The notes below the pieces were generated by a model. The model had not been told where the DNA came from. It was given only the letters and a program-made list of their open reading frames with translations, and searched no databases. The translations under genes were made by a program, and so were the position numbers. From an uncultured Gemmatimonadales bacterium (GTDB taxonomy: Bacteria > Gemmatimonadota > Gemmatimonadetes > Gemmatimonadales > Gemmatimonadaceae), in assembly GCA_963850905.1 (NCBI GenBank), contig CAWKMU010000003.1:800001-864000 (forward strand): a DNA stretch of 64,000 nt, in the 5' to 3' direction. The stretch's first letter is position 1, and every line of letters starts with the position of its first letter. Below are positions 24,752-32,995 of the stretch, one piece after another.

Positions 24752-26467
24752 GTGACGAACCCTTGGCCGTACCACGCGGCTGACAATTGGCGCGAGCGCG
24801 TCGAAGCCGCGCTCAGGGGCACGTTCGTGCTCGAGCGCGAGTTGCGCGCCGGGTCGACGAATCGCGTGTTCGTCGGCTCCGAAACGGCGCTGGGGCGGCG
24901 TGTCGTCATCAAGATGCTGACGCCAGGCGTACCCGGAGGTGAGCAGGAGGCCGAGTTCCGCCGCGAGGCGGTCACCGCCGCGCGCCTCCACCACCCGCAC
25001 ATCGTTCCGATCTTCACGATCGGCACAGTGCTCGGAGTGCCGTATTTCACCATGCCGTTCATTGACGGCGAGTCGCTCCGCTCGCGCCTCGATCGCGCCG
25101 GCGCCCTCCCGATCGACGCGGCCCTGCGCATCGTGCGCGAGATTGGCAGCGCGCTCGCGTTCGCTCACGAGCTCGACGTCGTCCACCGGGACGTCAAACC
25201 GGAAAACATCGTCCTCGAGCGTGGCACCGGACGCGCGCTCCTTGGCGACTTTGGCATCGCCTGCGCACTCGGCGATTCCAGACGCGTGACTCCCGCCGGG
25301 ATGACGGTCGGGACACCGGTCTACATGTCCCCCGAGCAGGTGGACGGCCTCGAGTTGGACGGCAGGTCGGACACATACAGCCTCGGCCTAGTCGCGTGGG
25401 AAATGCTCGTGGGCGTCCGACCGTGGAGCGGCACGTCACTCGACGACGTGATGTATCGCCAGAAGCACGTCGCGCTGCCACCCCTCGAGACATACGCGAG
25501 CGACGTGCCCAGGCGCGTCGTTGATGCGATCGAGCGCGCGCTCTGCAAAAATCGCGAGGAGCGCTGGCCATCGGTGGCCGACTTTCTGGAGGCGATCGAG
25601 CCCGCCGCGCAATCGGCATCGAGCCAAGCTGCCCCGTCGCGCCAGGCTGACGGGTTCCCGAGTGCGGAGTGGACACTCGCCACGCCGTGGGACGAGCGTG
25701 AGGACGTCACTGCCGCGGCGCCTGCCGATCCGGCAGCGGTACCGACGGTCGCCATGGCGGCCCGCCACGAGGCGCAGAGACCGAGCGGCGTCGCTGCGCG
25801 GCAGGAATTGCGCCCCGTCGCATTCCGAGAATCGCGTGCGCGCGACGCTGCGCAGGAACGCCGCCGACAGCGCGTCCGATGGATCACCGCGGCGTGCTGC
25901 GCCGGGATCGTCACCGCAGGCCTGGCCGCGGCGATGTCCGGTCATCACGGGATCGTGCGCTGGTCCTCGACGCGTGGTGACGTCGCAATGGACACGCCTG
26001 CCCAAGCGTCAGCAGACAGCGTGACGATCGACACCGTCGCAATGCCCGTTGCTGCAGCGGCCCTTGCGTCGCTCGAGCCCGTCACGCCCGCGCATTTCGA
26101 CGACTCGCTCGCGCTTCCTGCGCTGGCCACGCCGGCGTGGCACGTGACCGAAGCCCGCGCGCACGCGGCGCCGCGCGCGAGCGAACCAGGCCCGAGCCCA
26201 TACGACCCAGTCCGAGCGCGTGCGGCAACCGCGACGCTCTCGCTGCAGGCCTACCAGGCCGCCGTCGCAGGCGCCGCGCTGCTCCAGGCGCCGGCCGCTG
26301 TCGCACCGCTACAGGTCGGGAACGACACGAATACCCCCGCGACCGGTGTCCGAGTCGCCCCACACCGAGCGGCACCCAGCAACGCCGCAACGGGATCCCC
26401 GATCCAAGACTCTTCGTCCCCCGCCGTCGGCGTCCGCGTGCACACCCCTCCGCTCCGCACGCCATAG
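24752..26467 (+). CDS. Hanks-type Ser/Thr protein kinase with TM segment and low-complexity tail
   Basis: VVIK, HPHIVP, HRDVKPEN, DFG, GTPVYMSPEQ, DGRSDTYSLG intact; start uncertain. Confidence 0.9.
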   Translation: MTNPWPYHAADNWRERVEAALRGTFVLERELRAGSTNRVFVGSETALGRRVVIKMLTPGVPGGEQEAEFRREAVTAARLHHPHIVPIFTIGTVLGVPYFTMPFIDGESLRSRLDRAGALPIDAALRIVREIGSALAFAHELDVVHRDVKPENIVLERGTGRALLGDFGIACALGDSRRVTPAGMTVGTPVYMSPEQVDGLELDGRSDTYSLGLVAWEMLVGVRPWSGTSLDDVMYRQKHVALPPLETYASDVPRRVVDAIERALCKNREERWPSVADFLEAIEPAAQSASSQAAPSRQADGFPSAEWTLATPWDEREDVTAAAPADPAAVPTVAMAARHEAQRPSGVAARQELRPVAFRESRARDAAQERRRQRVRWITAACCAGIVTAGLAAAMSGHHGIVRWSSTRGDVAMDTPAQASADSVTIDTVAMPVAAAALASLEPVTPAHFDDSLALPALATPAWHVTEARAHAAPRASEPGPSPYDPVRARAATATLSLQAYQAAVAGAALLQAPAAVAPLQVGNDTNTPATGVRVAPHRAAPSNAATGSPIQDSSSPAVGVRVHTPPLRTP

Positions 26468-26613: not shown

Positions 26614-27112
26614 GACGGTCGGGGTGCGCATTGTGATGCTCGACCACGCAAGACCGCGCACTGTGCGCTTTGTCACCGCTGAGACCGCCCGTGCGGCCGA
26701 CATTGTGGGATGCGCAATCGCATCTCCGTTTCTCCAACGAGTCATGGACGAGGTGAAGCGTCAGCCACCGGGCGCCGCTGGCCTCGACGACTCCACCAAG
26801 CTCGAGACGGACGAGGGCCCGTTCCCCGCATTTGGTGTGACGCCCATCCAACCGTTGCAGCTGTTTGTCGAGATCGAGACCCTGAGAACCCTGGTGGCCG
26901 ACGCACTCGAGGCGCTGCGATGGAGCGAGACGCGGATCTGCACGAGCCCCGAGCGCACCGCCGCCTGGCAACGGGCCGTCGACCAACGACGCCGCTTCCT
27001 CACCTGGCTCACCGCACGAGGCCATGAGAAGGTCTTCCTCGCGATGTACCCGGAATACCTCCTCACGCACGAGCTGGATGAGGCGGACGGATCCGAAGAT
27101 CAACTCACCTGA
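26612..27112 (+). CDS. Hypothetical protein
   Basis: Globular-looking ORF filling the gap before the convergent gene; start chosen after the repeat. Confidence 0.5.
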   Translation: MTVGVRIVMLDHARPRTVRFVTAETARAADIVGCAIASPFLQRVMDEVKRQPPGAAGLDDSTKLETDEGPFPAFGVTPIQPLQLFVEIETLRTLVADALEALRWSETRICTSPERTAAWQRAVDQRRRFLTWLTARGHEKVFLAMYPEYLLTHELDEADGSEDQLT

Positions 27113-28085
27113 CGCCTGCGGCTTCCGCGAGGTAGTCGTTGTAGGAGTGGCGCGCCCACCCGGCGTAGTGCGTGTTCGAGTGGTTCGTTTCATCTAGCAC
27201 GGCCAGCATCGCGGGAAGCCGCTCGCCGTAGTCAGGCGTTCGCAGCGCGATGGCCATGACGCCCAGATCGGCCGCGTCCAACCCCTGATAGGCCATCTCC
27301 AGATATGCACGGCTCGCTTGTCGGAGCTTCTCCGCCTGTGCGTCCGCGGGCGTGCCGTCAGCGGGGCTACTGAGCTCGTACAACATCAGTGTGAACCGTG
27401 GAAGCGCCGACAGCAGCATCCGCCGATCTGCGACACTCCCCTTCAACAGCTTGTTCTGAATGTCGCCGTTGACCGTCAGGTGAGCGGGACCGGCCATCGC
27501 ACGCACGGCGCGATACGCCTCTGCCAGCCCCGGAAGAAACCGTAGATTGCCCGCTCCCTTGTTCTCCGGTCGTTGCTGCGGCTCGATGTCGAGGTGAATG
27601 CCGTCGAACCGCTGTGTGGCATGTTCGCGGTTGAACTGCACGATCGCCTGGACGTGCTCCAGAAGTTTGTCGCGCGGCTTGCCCGGCTCGTCCGCATCGG
27701 TGCTCGACAACAGCGCCTCGACACGCACGCCGGATCGATGCAGTACCTCGATTGCGTGCATGAGCTCGCTCTCCTCCGAGGGGAGGTCGCGACTGCCCAC
27801 CGAGACATAGACCTCGGTCACCGCGTTCGCCTGGCAAAAGTCCCGCAACGTCTCCGCCGCGCGCGGTGCGGCGAAGACAGATGCACTCTTCCAAACCCAG
27901 AGTCCATGGAGCGTGGCACCGGCTCCGGTCGTGCTCGGACGTGCCGCCAGCGTCGACAGGAGGATAATGTGTGTCAGCCATCGGACTCGGCGCCCTGGCG
28001 GCGTCAATCGCAGTTTCGGGGAACGCACGTCCACGATGCTAGGCCGGACGGCTCGGAGCGTCCAATACTTTGGGCGGATCAACAC
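27105..28085 (-). CDS. Secreted glycoside-hydrolase-like TIM-barrel protein
   Basis: Signal-like N-terminus; GLWVW, VYVS, FDGIHLDIEP motif; true start may be downstream. Confidence 0.6.
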   Translation of the reverse strand: MLIRPKYWTLRAVRPSIVDVRSPKLRLTPPGRRVRWLTHIILLSTLAARPSTTGAGATLHGLWVWKSASVFAAPRAAETLRDFCQANAVTEVYVSVGSRDLPSEESELMHAIEVLHRSGVRVEALLSSTDADEPGKPRDKLLEHVQAIVQFNREHATQRFDGIHLDIEPQQRPENKGAGNLRFLPGLAEAYRAVRAMAGPAHLTVNGDIQNKLLKGSVADRRMLLSALPRFTLMLYELSSPADGTPADAQAEKLRQASRAYLEMAYQGLDAADLGVMAIALRTPDYGERLPAMLAVLDETNHSNTHYAGWARHSYNDYLAEAAGVR

Positions 28086-28086
28086 G

Positions 28087-28101
28087 ATAGCGGCGCGCTA
28101 T
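28087..28101. promoter_or_regulatory. LysR-type recognition box
   Basis: Perfect dyad ATAG-N7-CTAT (T-N11-A) between the divergent genes; weaker ATCG-N7-CTAC at 28201-28215. Confidence 0.6.
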
Positions 28102-28229
28102 GACTGCGTGGCATCGCCGCATACCCGCCCCGCTGTCGTCGGCCATTCTTGACCACTAACCCCCAACGCCTGGCTCGTATACCTTGATCGCGAGCATCCG
28201 ATCGGCGCAGTCTACACGAGGATTGTGGC

Positions 28230-29324
28230 TTGGAGCTGCGTCACCTGCGCTACTTCGTCGCCGTTGCCGAGGAACGCCACGTCGGGCGCGCGGCCGGCCG
28301 CCTCAACGTCTCGCAACCGTCGCTGTCCGCTCAGATCCATGATCTCGAGCGCGAGCTGGGCGCACAGTTGTTCGAGCGCACACCGCGCGGCATGCAGTTG
28401 ACGCCGGCCGGCGAGAAGTTTCTGGCCCATGCGAGACGGACGCTTCGCGAAGCGGATCACGCCGTCGGTGCGGTCCGCGAGACGGACCACTCGGGGGATC
28501 GAGCCGAGTTGCGCGAGGCCCTGCAGACGTCGCTCGGCGCCAACTACACGATCGACCAACAGTTGGGGGGACGTAACTCGCGAGTGTTCGCCGCAACGGA
28601 GACCGCGCTGGCCCGGCGCGTCGTCGTCAAGGCGCTCCCGCGTGGACTCGCGGCCGGTGTCAGCGCAGAGCGATTCCGTCAGGAGGTGCAGTTCGCCGCG
28701 CGCCTGACTCATCCGCACATAGTTCCCGCCCTGGCGGCGGGCGGTGATGCCGAGCTGCTCTATTACACGATGCCATTCGTCGAAGGCGAGTCGCTCCGGA
28801 CTCGGTTGGGCCGCGAGCGGCAGCTACCCCTCGACGATGCGCTCACGATCGCGCGGGAAATCGCCGACGCGCTCGCGTACGCCCACGGCCAGTCCGTGGT
28901 GCACCGGGACATCACGCCGGACAACATCCTGCTCGCCGCCGGGCACGCACTCGTAACGAACTTCGGCATCGCGCGGGCCGTGAGCCGCGCGGGAGAGTCG
29001 GGCTTGACCGCGCCCGGCGTGATCCTGGGTACGCCGGCGTACATGTCGCCCGAGCAGGCTGGCGGAGCGCCCGACGTGGATGCCAGGAGCGATATCTACT
29101 CGTTGGCCGCGGTGTTGTTCGAGATGCTGGCGGGCGAGCCGCCCTTCACTGGCGCCACCGCGCAGGCCATCATCGCGAAACAACAGAGCACCGCGCCGCC
29201 ATCGCTCCAGTCGCGACGACCAAGCGTGCCCGAGCACATCGCGCGTGCGGTCGCACGAGGGCTCTCACCGATTCCGGCCGACCGGTTCCAGAGCGCGCGG
29301 GCATTTGCTGCGGCACTCGTGTGA
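28230..29324 (+). CDS. LysR-type HTH fused to a Ser/Thr (pseudo)kinase domain
   Basis: GAGGA RBS, TTG start; ELRHLRYFVAVAEE..RAA..LNVSQPSLS.QI..LE.ELG..LFERT (LysR HTH), then a kinase fold with HRDITPDN and NFG. Confidence 0.88.
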   Translation: MELRHLRYFVAVAEERHVGRAAGRLNVSQPSLSAQIHDLERELGAQLFERTPRGMQLTPAGEKFLAHARRTLREADHAVGAVRETDHSGDRAELREALQTSLGANYTIDQQLGGRNSRVFAATETALARRVVVKALPRGLAAGVSAERFRQEVQFAARLTHPHIVPALAAGGDAELLYYTMPFVEGESLRTRLGRERQLPLDDALTIAREIADALAYAHGQSVVHRDITPDNILLAAGHALVTNFGIARAVSRAGESGLTAPGVILGTPAYMSPEQAGGAPDVDARSDIYSLAAVLFEMLAGEPPFTGATAQAIIAKQQSTAPPSLQSRRPSVPEHIARAVARGLSPIPADRFQSARAFAAALV

Positions 29325-29378
29325 GCCTGGCGGCCGACGTCGAATGACGCCGCCGCGCCGATCGCGAGCGATCACCGA

Positions 29379-30614
29379 GTGAATCCAGGCTTTGCTCCGC
29401 GGAGCGCCGGACGCGCCGCGTTTGCGTTCATTTTCGTCACCGTCGCCCTCGACATGTTGGCGCTCGGCATCATCGTGCCGGTCCTGCCGACGCTCATCGT
29501 GTCGTTCGAGGGCGGATCGATCGCGCGGGCGTCGACCATCACCGGATGGTTCGGCTTTGCCTGGGCGCTGATGCAGTTCCTCTGCTCACCGACGATCGGC
29601 ACGCTCTCCGATCGCTTTGGGCGCCGACCGGTGATCCTGCTGTCGAACCTTGGTCTCGGGCTCGACTACCTCGTGATGGCCGTCGCGCCGTCGGTCGGCT
29701 GGCTGTTTCTCGGCCGAGTGCTGTCGGGCATCACCTCATCGAGCTACCCGACGGCAACAGCGTATGTGGCTGACGTGACCCCAGCCGACCAGCGCGCGGC
29801 GCGTTTCGGCATGCTCGGCGCAGCGTTCGGCCTCGGGTTCGTCATCGGGCCGGCCGTGGGCGGACTCCTCGGCGCTATCGATCTCCGCCTGCCGTTCTGG
29901 GTCGCCGCCGCGTTGAGTCTGGCGAATTTCGCCTACGGGTTTTTCATTCTGCCCGAGTCGCTCCCCCGAGAGCGGCGGGGCCGCGTGGAATGGCGCATGG
30001 CCCACCCGTTCGGAGCGATCGCGTTTCTCCGGTCGCGCGCCGCACTCCTGGGACTCGGCGTCGCCGCATTTCTCTATTACGTCGCCCACGAAGTGTTGCC
30101 GAGTCTCTACGTGCTGTACACCGAGTACCGATACACCTGGAACGAACGACAGATCGGGATTTCGCTCGCGGCCATCGGCGTGTGCACCACGATCGTGTCC
30201 GCCTTCCTCGTCGGCCCGGTCGTCGCGCGACTCGGCGAACGTCGCTCACTCGCGTTGGGATATGCGTGCATGACGACCGCCTTCTCCGTGTTCGCCATCG
30301 CGGCCGCGGGGAACGCGTTCCTCTGCGGGATCCCGTTCGTCTCGCTGAGTGGCATCGCCAGCCCATCGCTGCAGGCACTCGCAACCCGTCACGTCGACAG
30401 CACCGAGCAAGGCCAACTCCAAGGCGCGCTGAGCAGCCTGCGGGGCGTCGGCATGATGATCGGACCGCTGCTCTTCACCCAGACCTTCACCTGGTCCCTG
30501 CAACTCCCCCACCCATTCCCCGCCGCCCCCATGTGGCTCGCCGCCACATGCGTGGGTATTGCCGGATTTGCGGGATGGCTGGCGACCGCGCCACGGGCAG
30601 CGCAAGCGGTGTAG
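29379..30614 (+). CDS. TCR/Tet family MFS efflux transporter
   Basis: 12 TM; motif A GTLSDRFGRRP; LGRVLSG; antiporter motif GFVIGPAVGG. Confidence 0.9.
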   Translation: MNPGFAPRSAGRAAFAFIFVTVALDMLALGIIVPVLPTLIVSFEGGSIARASTITGWFGFAWALMQFLCSPTIGTLSDRFGRRPVILLSNLGLGLDYLVMAVAPSVGWLFLGRVLSGITSSSYPTATAYVADVTPADQRAARFGMLGAAFGLGFVIGPAVGGLLGAIDLRLPFWVAAALSLANFAYGFFILPESLPRERRGRVEWRMAHPFGAIAFLRSRAALLGLGVAAFLYYVAHEVLPSLYVLYTEYRYTWNERQIGISLAAIGVCTTIVSAFLVGPVVARLGERRSLALGYACMTTAFSVFAIAAAGNAFLCGIPFVSLSGIASPSLQALATRHVDSTEQGQLQGALSSLRGVGMMIGPLLFTQTFTWSLQLPHPFPAAPMWLAATCVGIAGFAGWLATAPRAAQAV

Positions 30615-30621
30615 CAAAAAC

Positions 30622-30787
30622 AACGGCGGGGTTAGGGGTCAGGGGTCAGGGGAACAGACCGAAAGGTCTGGTTCACTGTGCACAATGCCCGCCTTGGACC
30701 GGTAGGGGCGACGCATTGCGTCGCCCGTCGTTGTCGTTGCGGTTGTCGTTCCCTGACCCCTGACCCCTGACCCCTGACCCCGCCGTT
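30622..30787 (+). repeat. Composite heptamer-arm/GTAG-REP element, full copy
   Basis: AACGGCGGGG, core 30702-30726, (TGACCCC)4, GCCGTT; between convergent genes. Confidence 0.92.
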
Positions 30788-30797
30788 TTAGTCCCTA

Positions 30798-32531
30798 CTA
30801 CCTCACCAACTCCACCCGCCGGTTGCGCGCGCGACCAACCAGCGTCGAGTTCGAATCGACAGGCGATGCCGAGCCAAATCCGTTCGACGTCAGGCGCTTG
30901 GTCGCGATCTGAAAGCCGCTGATCAGCGTGTCCCGGACCGCTGCCGCACGACGCTTGGACAGCGCGAGGTTGTAGACATCGCCCCCGATGCTGTCAGTGT
31001 AGCCGTTGATCGCGAGCGTCCAGTCGGGATTCTTGTGCATGAGATCTGCGATCTCATGCAGCACAGGACCGGACTGCTTCTTGATCTTGGCCTGTGCGAA
31101 ATCGAAGTAGATCCCGTACACGAGGACCTTCCGGTCGCGCTTCAAAGCCTGCTCCATGCGCTGCTCGCTGGCGGCTGCACCTGCCCCACCACCGCCGCCG
31201 CTACCACTGCCACCGCCACCGCCACCGCCGCTACCGCCACTGCCGCCACCACCCGCGGCGCCGCCACTCCCTGCAGCGGCCGATCCGCCCGCGCCTGCGC
31301 CCGCGCCACCGCCTCCACCACCACCACCACCACCACCGCCGCCGCCACCGCCGCCCGAGCCGTTGCCCCCGGCCCCGCCGGCAGCGCCGCCACCAGCAGC
31401 CAGCCCAAGATCGCCACCACCTCCTCCACCGCCACCTCCTCCACCTGCACTGCCAGCGATTTCGACATCGGCATCAGCGATATGCACGACCTGGAGTTGT
31501 GTCGTATCGAGTTGCAGTATGCCTTTGACCGTCCGGAACCCGGTCTTGTTCGTGCCACGCAGCACCGAATCGGGCACCCCATCGAGCGTGGTGTCCTTCT
31601 GCAAATCCATCGTCCTCCAGGTGAGGACAATCGGATCTTTCGGATCATCGAGGATGAAGTACTCGCAGTCGACGTGGCGGATCTCGGCGCCGTTTCGCGC
31701 GATGGTTGGCGTTCTGATCGTATCGCACTGCGCATGCACGGCGGGCAGCACGACGGGCTGGTCATTCAAAATGACCGGAACGCCAACAGGATGCGGCTCG
31801 ACACGACGGATCCAGTGTCCGCGGTCCTCGAGGTCCCCAAAGTCCGGCATCATGACCCGCACATAGACCCTGTGTCCGGTCTTGATGGCGGCGAGGAGCC
31901 GTGCGGAGAAGGTGATGCCCGTCGTACCCGTATCGGTCTCGGGCGGCTCCGTCGTCGGTCTGGAAAGGAAGACTGGCGCGAAGCCACATGCGGTATCCTG
32001 ATCCGCTCGGAGGACGTTCCGTCGCGAGGCGGTCGGCGTCGGGACGGTTTTCTTGGCCAAGACGTCGTACTTGGGCACCATCGCCGACAGGTCGAGCGAC
32101 ACCAGATTCCCGGTGAGGTCAGTCACCGTCTTGACGGACTCGTAGTCCCCATCCGGCGTCGCGATGGCCGTTATCACGTTCAATCCGACACGCAATGGCA
32201 CGGTGTCGCCGACTGATGCGCGGCCGGGCGTCCACGGCTGCAGATTGGGCACGCTGTCAGGCTCAGTTTCATCGGCGAGGCACGCGTGCTGTATCGCAGA
32301 GACGCCGTCTGCTTCTGTCGCGCTTGGCAGGTCCTTGAATCCACTGTTGGACGATCCTCCCCCCGGTGCTGCCGCCGGCAGTGCGGCGAGCTGGGCGTCA
32401 GCACTCTGCTGTGGCGTCTTTCCCTGCTTGTGGCCACCGCACGCCAACATCGCCGAAAGGAGGATGTACGCGCAGGCGCCGCGGATGCGGAGATTCGTTC
32501 GGTCGGCGGTCGACTTCATCTGGCAGCACAT
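30798..32531 (-). CDS. OmpA-family lipoprotein with long poly-Gly linker
   Basis: Lipobox MLAC; C-terminal IYFDF, GYTD, YNLALSKRRAAAV, RARNRRVE; Gly/Ala/Ser run of about 90 aa. Confidence 0.85.
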   Translation of the reverse strand: MCCQMKSTADRTNLRIRGACAYILLSAMLACGGHKQGKTPQQSADAQLAALPAAAPGGGSSNSGFKDLPSATEADGVSAIQHACLADETEPDSVPNLQPWTPGRASVGDTVPLRVGLNVITAIATPDGDYESVKTVTDLTGNLVSLDLSAMVPKYDVLAKKTVPTPTASRRNVLRADQDTACGFAPVFLSRPTTEPPETDTGTTGITFSARLLAAIKTGHRVYVRVMMPDFGDLEDRGHWIRRVEPHPVGVPVILNDQPVVLPAVHAQCDTIRTPTIARNGAEIRHVDCEYFILDDPKDPIVLTWRTMDLQKDTTLDGVPDSVLRGTNKTGFRTVKGILQLDTTQLQVVHIADADVEIAGSAGGGGGGGGGGGDLGLAAGGGAAGGAGGNGSGGGGGGGGGGGGGGGGGAGAGAGGSAAAGSGGAAGGGGSGGSGGGGGGGSGSGGGGGAGAAASEQRMEQALKRDRKVLVYGIYFDFAQAKIKKQSGPVLHEIADLMHKNPDWTLAINGYTDSIGGDVYNLALSKRRAAAVRDTLISGFQIATKRLTSNGFGSASPVDSNSTLVGRARNRRVELVR

Positions 32532-32995
32532 GGCTTCCCTCTCGGACCCAGGAGGAGCGCTCGCACGCTGGACAGCCTTGTCGGGCCTCGACCTCGCGCG
32601 ATCTGCGCGCAAATGCGCTAGCGCCCGCTCCACCTAGCGCGTTTTCAGCGGCAAAAGCCAATACTTTGAGGCGAACGAGCCAATAGGATGTGTATATGGC
32701 CCCGGTACGCGGGGGCTGGACGCACCCGCCAGCTCGGAACGATCACCGTCTCACCTGGCACTCGGGACTCGACGGAATGGCGGCCGAGCCATGCCATGCG
32801 TACGTGGCACGGTGCTGCGATAGCGACGAAGGTATGTGGTGACAATCCCAACGGCCCTCCTGCGCAGCGATGGGCACGGGATTTCCTAAGGCGATGCGGT
32901 GCCCCACAGCGCGTCACGCCGGTTAGCATGCAGATGCAGGATGCAGATCCGTTCAGCCCGTCCGTCCCTTGTTCTCATTCGGTCGAGGATGGTCC

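Follow-up and report, generated by a model that had tools for sequence, protein, structure and literature searches.

The 64,000 nt stretch of DNA analysed here (the window), from an uncultured Gemmatimonadales bacterium, carries a gene (28230–29324, + strand) in which a LysR-type helix-turn-helix (HTH) with its linker helix is fused to a Hanks-type pseudokinase. The favoured reading, to which we assign a probability of about 0.4 on the basis of sequence comparisons and structure models, is that the fusion activates a regulon of about 20 promoters, and that the pseudokinase replaces the effector domain of LysR-type transcriptional regulators (LTTRs) as the switch, thrown by phosphorylation of T260 in its activation loop.

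The reading frame begins with TTG and encodes 364 aa without an internal stop, in agreement with the initial annotation. Pfam places HTH_1 at residues 3–62 (E 6e-26) and Pkinase at residues 106–318 (E 4e-37), the latter standing where an LTTR has its LysR_substrate domain (PF03466), which Pfam did not find in the fusion; the NCBIfam LTTR models all scored far below their cut-offs. The winged HTH (residues 1–62) and linker helix (about 59–84) are encoded by 28230–28481 (+) and belong to the BenM/CatM/CbnR subfamily, close to the BenM/CatM/HcaR likeness that had been proposed for them: the closest solved structures are 7w06, BenM-DBD, CbnR and CatM, the AlphaFold2 (AF2) model has the linker helix at residues 59–84, and the alignment with BenM extends to residue 83. 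The recognition region of the HTH (Q29-P30-S31-L32-S33) is unchanged in 17 of 17 sequences. For the remainder of the protein (28500–29324, +), the best Foldseek matches of the AF2 model (mean pLDDT 74) are PknB, PknA and Stk1.

The same HTH_1 plus Pkinase architecture was found in 16 clusters of 61–96% identity, one of which contains the window's own protein. The catalytic-loop change of lysine to threonine (T229; 28914–28916, +), the replacement of DFG by NF (N244; 28959–28961, +) and T260 (29007–29009, +) are present in all 42 distinct family sequences, and T229 and N244 are unchanged in the 23 rows of the alignment. Ten pairwise comparisons gave dN/dS values of 0.04–0.14, with the HTH under the strongest selection (0–0.07) and the kinase domain at 0.05–0.15. 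The sequences thus establish a conserved family with purifying selection on both domains, so that the two substitutions are neither base-call errors nor signs of a chimeric junction, and the fusion is not a singleton drifting free of constraint. Across the junction itself (near 28480–28510), one Logan contig covers 28278–28526 with zero differences, and may derive from the source sample; the matching Logan contigs are short and none covers the whole stretch. No RNA sample was listed among the holders of the sequence, a result that has no bearing on its expression. No catalytically intact LysR-kinase fusion was seen among the best 120 matches of one search or the best 150 of another; in the latter, with a cut-off of about 355 bits, only P0023 covers both domains, and more distant fusions could rank beneath both sets. 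A search of the ESM Atlas returned only ordinary kinase clusters. In a quick kinase tree, the family forms one side of a branch with support 99, nested among kinases of Gemmatimonadota type.

The kinase motifs read as first reported (LGGRNSRV, VVVK134, E152, HRDITPDN, TNFG and YMSPEQ). The fold, the beta3 (VAIK) lysine K134 (present in 22 of 22 family sequences), the alphaC glutamate E152, H225-R226-D227 of the HRD motif and the catalytic-loop asparagine N232 are kept, with K134, E152, D227 and N232 invariant or nearly so, while the DFG aspartate, the catalytic-loop lysine and the GxGxxG loop are altered. By sequence, a pseudokinase is defined as lacking at least one of the VAIK lysine, the HRD aspartate and the DFG aspartate (PMC13519141), and the domain meets this definition through loss of the last; it is apparently dead. 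Within its otherwise variable activation loop, T260, P262 and G263 are invariant, as are R226, R249 and R148-F149 elsewhere in the domain, and the P+1-loop residue T268 drifts (19 of 23). All 89 background kinases have the equivalent of T260, and the family shows no variation at 81 of its 264 kinase columns, so the conservation of T260 may reflect inherited structure.

Between the fusion and a divergent gene lies a perfect ATAG-N7-CTAT dyad (28087–28101), recovered by motif scan and centred at −65 relative to the start predicted for the divergent transcript (site 1, RBS). Site 2 (ABS; 28065–28079, − strand), an imperfect T-N11-A with a GTAT end and an A-run, lies 22 bp away, an offset shared by dyads across the genome, and abuts the −35 box. 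For the divergent gene, a sigma-70-type promoter is predicted at 28036–28064 (−), with −35 TGGACG (28059–28064) and −10 TAGCAT (28036–28041) separated by 17 nt; it matches the consensus at 8 of 12 positions, and a generic promoter scan with a threshold of 9 of 12 returned nothing. The LTTR-style layout (T-N11-A near −65, second site at −35, divergent target) is therefore present, with the start predicted from the −10 box rather than mapped, and the fusion is very probably a one-component regulator that acts at this dyad and on the divergent gene. A LysR box in the region shared with the divergent gene had been described in the initial annotation; the dyad and the divergent layout stand, and the description proves too narrow, the box being one of about 21 in the genome.

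The divergent gene (27105–28028, −) encodes a predicted target with a signal-peptide-like N-terminus and a DGIHLDIE motif, modelled as a GH18-like TIM barrel. It has 1852 relatives and no Pfam or NCBIfam match, and its model (pLDDT 85) retrieves mixed TIM barrels including GH18 by Foldseek, with no single assignment. Translation probably starts at 28028 or 28007 rather than 28085, because the longer reading would cross the gene's own promoter. Among three other genomes, it adjoins the fusion only in L003. The dyad at this locus is present with an altered spacer in L003 and L004 and missing upstream of the fusion gene in L005 and L006, so autoregulation is not universal. Upstream regions of the fusion gene vary among relatives. 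On the other side, an MFS transporter of DHA1 type (29379–30614, +) is probably co-transcribed with the regulator. The reported 54 nt spacing holds, and the protein is Tet-like, with a score of 319 bits where the Tet(A/B/C) cut-off is 475. Present in L004 and L005, it carries no box and is absent from L003, and was rejected as a boxed target or fixed partner.

Genome-wide, ATAG-N7-CTAT occurs 19 times against an expectation of 3.7, and 20 other spacings give 0–7 occurrences. In 18 of the 19, a BenM-type second site follows at +22 bp, and then −35 and −10 boxes. A position weight matrix (PWM) finds 21 sites in the genome, and five shuffled matrices find none. The −10 box was left out of the search pattern, and 18 of the 21 sites still show it at columns 61–62 (chance expectation, about 2.5% each). 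The dyad accordingly falls at −65, where PMC4834489 also puts it. These predicted promoters clearly share the LTTR activator layout. The gene after the box has a hydrophobic N-terminus in 18 of 21 cases (background, 38%); the predicted regulon of the fusion comprises about 20 promoters, mostly for exported or membrane proteins. A second, weaker box in the window (32658–32697, −; 25 bits by PWM) precedes a predicted target with an OmpA domain and lipoprotein-like character (30798–32633, −; Pfam OmpA at residues 509–605), and is also found in L003 (27.8), L004 (23.2) and L005 (22.0). A link of the small secreted targets to type VI secretion was sought, and gave one Hcp match under the cut-off (E 0.008) and none above it in G000. 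No third site downstream of the two is conserved across the regulon sites, which gives no indication of the classic sliding-dimer switch.

From this geometry we strongly infer that a linker-helix dimer would bind site 1 at −65 and that a second dimer on site 2 (−43) would recruit RNA polymerase to the weak −35 box. The tetramer interface of LTTRs is located in the ligand domain (PMC11495319); since the fusion has lost this domain, its pseudokinase probably supplies both the contact between dimers and the switch. Given these steps, there is an even chance that one of the host's active Ser/Thr kinases, roughly 30 in number, throws the switch by phosphorylating T260. Once phosphorylated, T260 would engage R226, R249 and the alphaC residue Arg148, and the dead kinase would close and pair as in MLKL, where an upstream kinase phosphorylates the activation loop and a dimer of dimers forms (PMC13519141). 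In a published model, the arginine of the RF motif is able to bind activation-loop phosphothreonines (bioRxiv 2025.01.12.632604). In that role the domain would amount to a receiver of Ser/Thr type. The wider proposal is tentative, and somewhat less probable than the reading it extends: a dead Ser/Thr kinase domain may have been repurposed as phospho-receiver and oligomerisation switch, a Ser/Thr counterpart of the response regulator, carrying signals of the expanded Gemmatimonadota kinome straight to a secretome regulon by an MLKL-like logic that bacteria reached independently.

The same regulator and regulon could instead be governed by a nucleotide or other small ligand, bound in the adenine pocket without metal, the pseudokinase then being a true replacement effector domain. 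The pocket residues are retained (V/L119, V132, K134, E152, gatekeeper M181, P182 and L234), EphB6 binds nucleotide independently of cations (PMC7586955), and ligand sensing would preserve the ligand-driven logic of LTTRs. However, the Gly-loop is one residue short in 41 of 41 family sequences, the longer form being found in 74 of 75 background kinases, and its sequence is freely variable (GRD, DRD, RPG, SAG); two phosphate contacts, negative or positive, are lost. ATP occupancy would also convey little of use to a regulon of exported proteins, and sensing of this kind is unlikely, though it fares best of the alternatives.

Slightly less probable again is that a protein partner, such as an active membrane kinase pairing through its cytoplasmic domain, holds or releases the pseudokinase without phosphorylating it. 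About 35 related kinase domains are encoded by the host, the majority followed by a long C-terminal tail, and the family has its own invariant residues on the N-lobe and substrate-side surfaces (Q111, R138, Q151, A167, P262 and F297). Against it, no kinase travels with the fusion gene, and the joint invariance of T260, R226 and R249 would go unexplained by a partner alone. Neither synteny, nor the neighbourhood of the boxes, nor co-occurrence of the kinase genes examined identified a partner kinase. The initial annotation had pointed to a similar intact kinase at 24752; there is a kinase there, at 43% identity against up to 54% for other paralogues, with a Gly-loop (RAGSTNRV) that is itself non-canonical. 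A dedicated partnership with it was rejected because the same synteny exists in G343, which has neither fusion nor box. For the kinase divergent to the site at C3:274007, G407 alone gave a close match, and the proximity of boxes to kinase genes does not clearly exceed that of random positions (2 of 20 within 5 kb, against 7%).

It is improbable that the pseudokinase serves solely as a constitutive oligomerisation scaffold, with the amount of regulator controlling the regulon. Two conserved sites with no third, together with the differing upstream regions of the fusion gene, would suit such an arrangement, but the selection on the kinase domain and the retention of RF, HRD and T260 over a divergence of 61–96% identity argue against it.

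Equally improbable is that the boxes serve some other regulator, absent from the assemblies, and that the fusion has a different DNA target or none. The genomes that carry the box are those that carry the fusion gene: 2 of 401 in the phylum and 4 of 10 in the genus. These four form one recA clade (support 99), so that the co-occurrence counts as one event, and the genomes are 67–93% complete, so that another clade-specific regulator could be missed. The regulon evidence comes only from the clade of close relatives (84–96% identity, the more distant family members standing at 61–77%), and within it the box is retained before orthologous genes at 7 of 8 sites in G401, 9 of 9 in G278 and 2 of 2 in G402. 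The only other LTTR common to all four genomes has orthologues of 67–85% identity in genomes without the box. In G278 (93% complete, nine boxes), the PF00126 matches are only the fusion, this shared CysL/CbbR-like LTTR and a ModE-like HTH. The boxes have LTTR-type geometry, one lies directly upstream of the fusion in divergent position in both the window and L003, and the HTH of the fusion is the domain under strongest selection.

Weak or non-canonical catalysis (autophosphorylation, ATPase activity or phosphorylation of RNA polymerase) is very improbable: the near-invariance of K134, E152, D227 and N232 and reports of low activity in some pseudokinases (PMC13519141) would allow it, but the DFG aspartate, the catalytic-loop lysine and the Gly-loop are all changed and T268 drifts.

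BenM, CatM and CbnR share with the fusion the HTH and linker helix and the divergent layout with T-N11-A at −65 (PMC4834489 and PMC6628147), and the BenM and CatM promoters (PMC6628147), those of the subfamily to which the fusion HTH belongs, share the GTAT half-site, A-run and −35 position of site 2. Unlike them, the fusion has no periplasmic-binding-protein effector domain, its box is ATAG-N7-CTAT rather than ATAC-N7-GTAT, no third site is conserved, and its targets are some 20 scattered genes for exported proteins instead of a catabolic operon. With PknB-type Hanks kinases it has in common the fold, gatekeeper Met, RF motif, HRD and first activation-loop Thr; it differs in the changes to DFG (NF) and catalytic-loop K (T), in deletion of the Gly-loop Met, in having no C-terminal tail or membrane anchor, and in its N-terminal DNA-binding domain. 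Ser/Thr signalling is linked to transcription in PknK-type kinase/MalT-LuxR fusions and in the AfsK/AfsR and PknH/EmbR pairs. Those kinases are active and N-terminal or on a separate chain, the regulators are not LysR, and in none of them does a dead kinase receive the phosphate.

Like the pseudokinases of the bSTK atlas (ActPs1-3, CP1, DYD, DLHK and GLW), the family is a conserved bacterial one. In the main text of that source, all seven atlas families have lost the VAIK lysine in some or all members and six have lost the HRD aspartate, whereas the fusion family retains both; by their descriptions there, the invariant lysine sets it apart from ActPs1-3, DLHK and GLW, and CP1 and DYD, likewise compared by description, have lost it only in part. 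The atlas main text mentions neither LysR, HTH, DNA-binding nor Gemmatimonad. STK40/SgK495 also keeps HRD and the beta3 lysine with DFG replaced by T-NF (PMC7586955), but is a eukaryotic COP1 scaffold without a DNA-binding domain. By analogy only, MLKL likewise has an effector module at its N-terminus, joined by a helical linker to a pseudokinase at its C-terminus; its output is membrane lysis rather than transcription, and the switch in the fusion is a proposal. No precedent for a LysR-HTH/pseudokinase fusion was found in the literature searched, and the text of a 2024 review of LTTR exceptions does not contain the terms 'kinase' or 'phosphorylat'.

What defines LTTRs is a ligand-binding domain with a second role in building the tetramer. 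The fusion swaps in a pseudokinase and keeps the two-site geometry at about 20 predicted promoters, so it appears that an unrelated fold is able to drive the DNA-binding head of an LTTR. The fusion would thus be a natural experiment on the requirements of LTTR activation, and a lead for modular biosensors. A bacterial pseudokinase also gains a concrete and testable output, in the form of predicted binding sites and targets, and this may open a first way of learning what is controlled by the roughly 35 kinases of these soil Gemmatimonadales.

A single open reading frame at 28230–29324 (+) encodes a 364 aa protein (hereafter, the fusion) in which Pfam places HTH_1 at residues 3–62 and Pkinase at residues 106–318, with no match to a LysR effector domain. 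This bears out the initial annotation, which described a LysR HTH and a kinase fold in one frame, and the motifs it listed are present as described. An AF2 model built from 23 sequences, with a mean pLDDT of 74, has a winged HTH followed by a linker helix (59–84), and a short joint of low confidence connects these to a kinase with two lobes. The nearest solved structures to residues 1–90 are 7w06, BenM, CbnR and CatM, and the top structural matches of the kinase part are PknB, PknA and Stk1.

The fusion belongs to a family that is real, conserved and under selection. A protein search returned 16 HTH_1 + Pkinase clusters (61–96% identity), one including the window's own protein, and six further members that were short-called or partial. 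The Lys to Thr and DFG to NFG changes (T229 and N244) are invariant in a 23-row alignment, and when 20 cluster members were joined to the alignment set, giving 42 distinct sequences (35 of them including the HTH), both residues and T260 were found in all 42. The Gly-loop is one residue short in 41/41 family sequences, a gap also visible in the alignment against PknB, and longer in 74 of 75 measurable background kinases; the background set comprised 90 kinases picked for HRDxK and DFG, and is 100% at those positions by construction. Purifying selection is evident from dN/dS values of 0.04–0.14 (10 pairs, five genes; HTH 0–0.07, kinase 0.05–0.15), and the family lies on one side of a branch (support 99) in a quickly built tree covering 89 kinase domains. 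It is also rare: the exact motif pattern was found in 2/401 genomes of the phylum, in three more GTDB genomes titled uncultured Gemmatimonadales (one being the locus of G278, discussed below) and in one metagenome contig. No LysR–kinase fusion with intact catalytic motifs occurred among the best 120 matches of one search or the best 150 of another. The nearest active relatives include a compact family of stand-alone kinases of about 283 aa (P0031, P0035 and others; DFGIC/DFGIG) without a tail, and none of the host kinases placed in the kinase tree groups with it. Proteins of about 635 aa with two LTTR units in tandem (P0266–P0271; P0267 is a 398 aa partial, and one of the proteins is labelled Gemmatimonadota) also deviate from the standard LTTR arrangement.

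The dyad reported between the fusion and the divergent gene (27105–28028, −) is real (28087–28101) and, like the 54 nt gap before the MFS gene (29379–30614, +), is placed as originally stated, but it is not a lone box. ATAG-N7-CTAT occurs 19 times in the host genome against 3.7 expected (Poisson 2e-8), and 20 other spacings of the ATAG/CTAT dyad occur 0–7 times each. Comparison of upstream regions shows the dyad kept and its spacer changed in the window and in two related loci, L003 and L004. The window and L003 additionally have a second T-N11-A site at a distance of 22 bp from the dyad, after which come −35-like and −10-like hexamers. The second element has an identical offset at 18 of the 19 dyads, the spacers being unrelated to one another. 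A matrix made from these dyads finds 21 sites at ≥16 bits (five column-shuffled matrices, 0), including one at 32658–32697, before the OmpA-domain gene (30798–32633, −). A −10 box that the matrix does not cover emerges unprompted downstream of it (A in 17/21 at column 62, T in 17/21 at column 66; 18/21 with YAnnnT at column 61 or 62), and its position would put the dyad (site 1) at about −65 and the second element (site 2) at about −43 from the predicted start. The usual LTTR primary site is at −65 (PMC4834489), and site 2 of BenM overlaps the −35 and carries an A-run and the half-site GTAT (PMC6628147). No third conserved site was seen at the 21 sites. At G000:C3:3469581–3469694 in the host, two boxes stand back to back between divergent genes, and the same pair is found in G278 (C3:276227–276340).

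The exact composite box (both sites) occurs 17 times in the host (G000), and 9, 8 and 2 times in three other genomes with the fusion gene (G278, G401 and G402), with none for a reversed control; a looser pattern gave 15, 9, 9 and 5, and none in the box-less G343. In the 401-genome sample, the two genomes that have the fusion gene also have the box, which occurs in 0/399 others, and at genus level both are in the same 4/10 genomes. These four genomes (67–93% complete) form one recA clade (support 99), so the co-occurrence counts as one event rather than as a statistical test. The box stays before orthologous genes at 7/8 sites in G401 (dS from the host about 1), 9/9 in G278 and 2/2 in G402. The only other LTTR common to the four genomes, which we take to be CysL/CbbR-like, has orthologues of 67–85% identity in box-less genomes (G084, G334 and G343). 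Taken together, the co-occurrence, the orthologous boxes, the subfamily match and the fact that one box lies in the divergent position argue that the fusion is the cognate regulator of the boxes, with a probability of about 0.85. Five box-less genomes contain DNA matching the target gene for a PCYCGC protein, and another target tested, L079, gave no match in three of these. The host's sole LTTR besides the fusion, L015 (C3:2192787, minus), has a frame of about 161 aa in which homology ends after about 120–150 residues (relatives, 300–330 aa), through either a frameshift or an assembly error.

A hydrophobic N-terminal stretch is present in 18 of the 21 first genes behind boxes against 38% of 3053 genes (binomial 1e-5; a hydropathy heuristic rather than a signal-peptide predictor, with crudely called background genes). 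By eye, 16 targets have signal or lipoprotein peptides, four are membrane proteins and one is neither. Most have no family assignment; those with a name comprise two intramembrane proteases of PrsW type, an Lcl_C protein, a DUF4412 protein, the PCYCGC protein, an MFS protein and the OmpA-domain protein. Taken as a set, the targets suggest a programme for the cell surface and for secretion. The two proteases (L070 and L077) are paralogues, 62% identical, and a relay to ECF sigma factors is possible; L077 homology stops near residue 290, possibly by frameshift. Five targets (L073, L074, L078, L082 and L084) are small signal-peptide proteins; in several the signal peptide is followed by a shared short motif with two cysteines. 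Hcp-like snippets in them gave one Pfam match, below cut-off, and for the rest the resemblance was judged by eye. The sole target without the hydrophobic stretch, L076 (G000:C4:670042–671154), has no Pfam match; by eye, its C-terminus resembles a fibre-type intramolecular chaperone domain.

Neither the MFS nor the intact kinase at 24752 is a fixed part of the fusion system. L004 and L005 (a further related locus) have the MFS gene, and L003 lacks it. The kinase said to be similar in sequence is present, but it is only 43% identical to the pseudokinase, other paralogues reaching 54%, and it is syntenic in all four loci and in G343, which at that place lacks the fusion, divergent, MFS and OmpA genes. 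Both the window and L003 have the divergent gene beside the fusion. Its protein begins with what resembles a signal peptide and falls into no Pfam family, and its predicted structure is a TIM barrel whose structural matches are mixed and include GH18. The protein has 1852 relatives (about 67% identity) in a large, unnamed and highly conserved family (nearest Atlas clusters mostly Acidobacteriota), yet it is found in just 2/401 genomes of the phylum, suggesting lateral acquisition of the gene. The gene is gone from upstream of the fusion in L004 and L005, apparently by separate deletions, one stopping about 12 bp short of the dyad and leaving it orphaned, the other removing it. In L005 the OmpA gene is missing as well, but a weak box is retained at that place. 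The interval separating the MFS gene from the OmpA gene (30615–30797) contains a palindromic dispersed repeat of about 170 nt with three short direct repeats per arm; this REP- or MITE-like element has 45 matches of at least 100 nt and 317 pieces in the host, and is also in G402.

LTTRs form dimers via the linker helix and tetramers chiefly via ligand domains (PMC11495319). The fusion retains the linker helix without a ligand domain, yet the two sites at its promoters are still spaced by two turns, from which we infer that the pseudokinase most likely provides the contact between dimers. The features lost (DFG-Asp, catalytic-loop Lys, Gly-loop and, partly, T268, 19/23) appear to be those serving catalysis, and those kept (T260, which aligns with the first activation-loop Thr of PknB, R226, R249 and the RF motif R148-F149) those serving an activation-loop switch; the role of R249 is assumed from PKA. 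The RF-motif Arg contacts activation-loop phosphothreonines in a model from the bSTK atlas (bioRxiv 10.1101/2025.01.12.632604). With this pattern of loss and retention, and about 35 related kinase domains in the host, the favoured switch is trans-phosphorylation: another kinase would phosphorylate T260, and this would drive assembly of a dimer of dimers in the manner of MLKL (PMC13519141). The argument is moderate, since T260 is universal among background kinases and 81/264 kinase columns are invariant in the family. Less probable alternatives are that the pseudokinase senses a nucleotide, is controlled by binding a partner, acts as a constitutive scaffold or keeps some residual catalysis.

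In its predicted working mode the fusion is like BenM-type activators; it departs from LTTRs in the effector domain and from active kinases in three motifs. PknK, AfsK/AfsR and PknH/EmbR offer further comparisons. It does not match the pattern described for pseudokinase families in the main text of the atlas (bioRxiv 10.1101/2025.01.12.632604), where the terms LysR, HTH and Gemmatimonad do not appear. Among the papers listed by searches of the openly accessible literature, none dealt with a LysR–kinase fusion, and the family is apparently undescribed so far. A phospho-receiver role for the pseudokinase is a tentative reading, at somewhat less than even odds; if true, the fusion would be categorically new, and the predicted regulon makes it directly testable.
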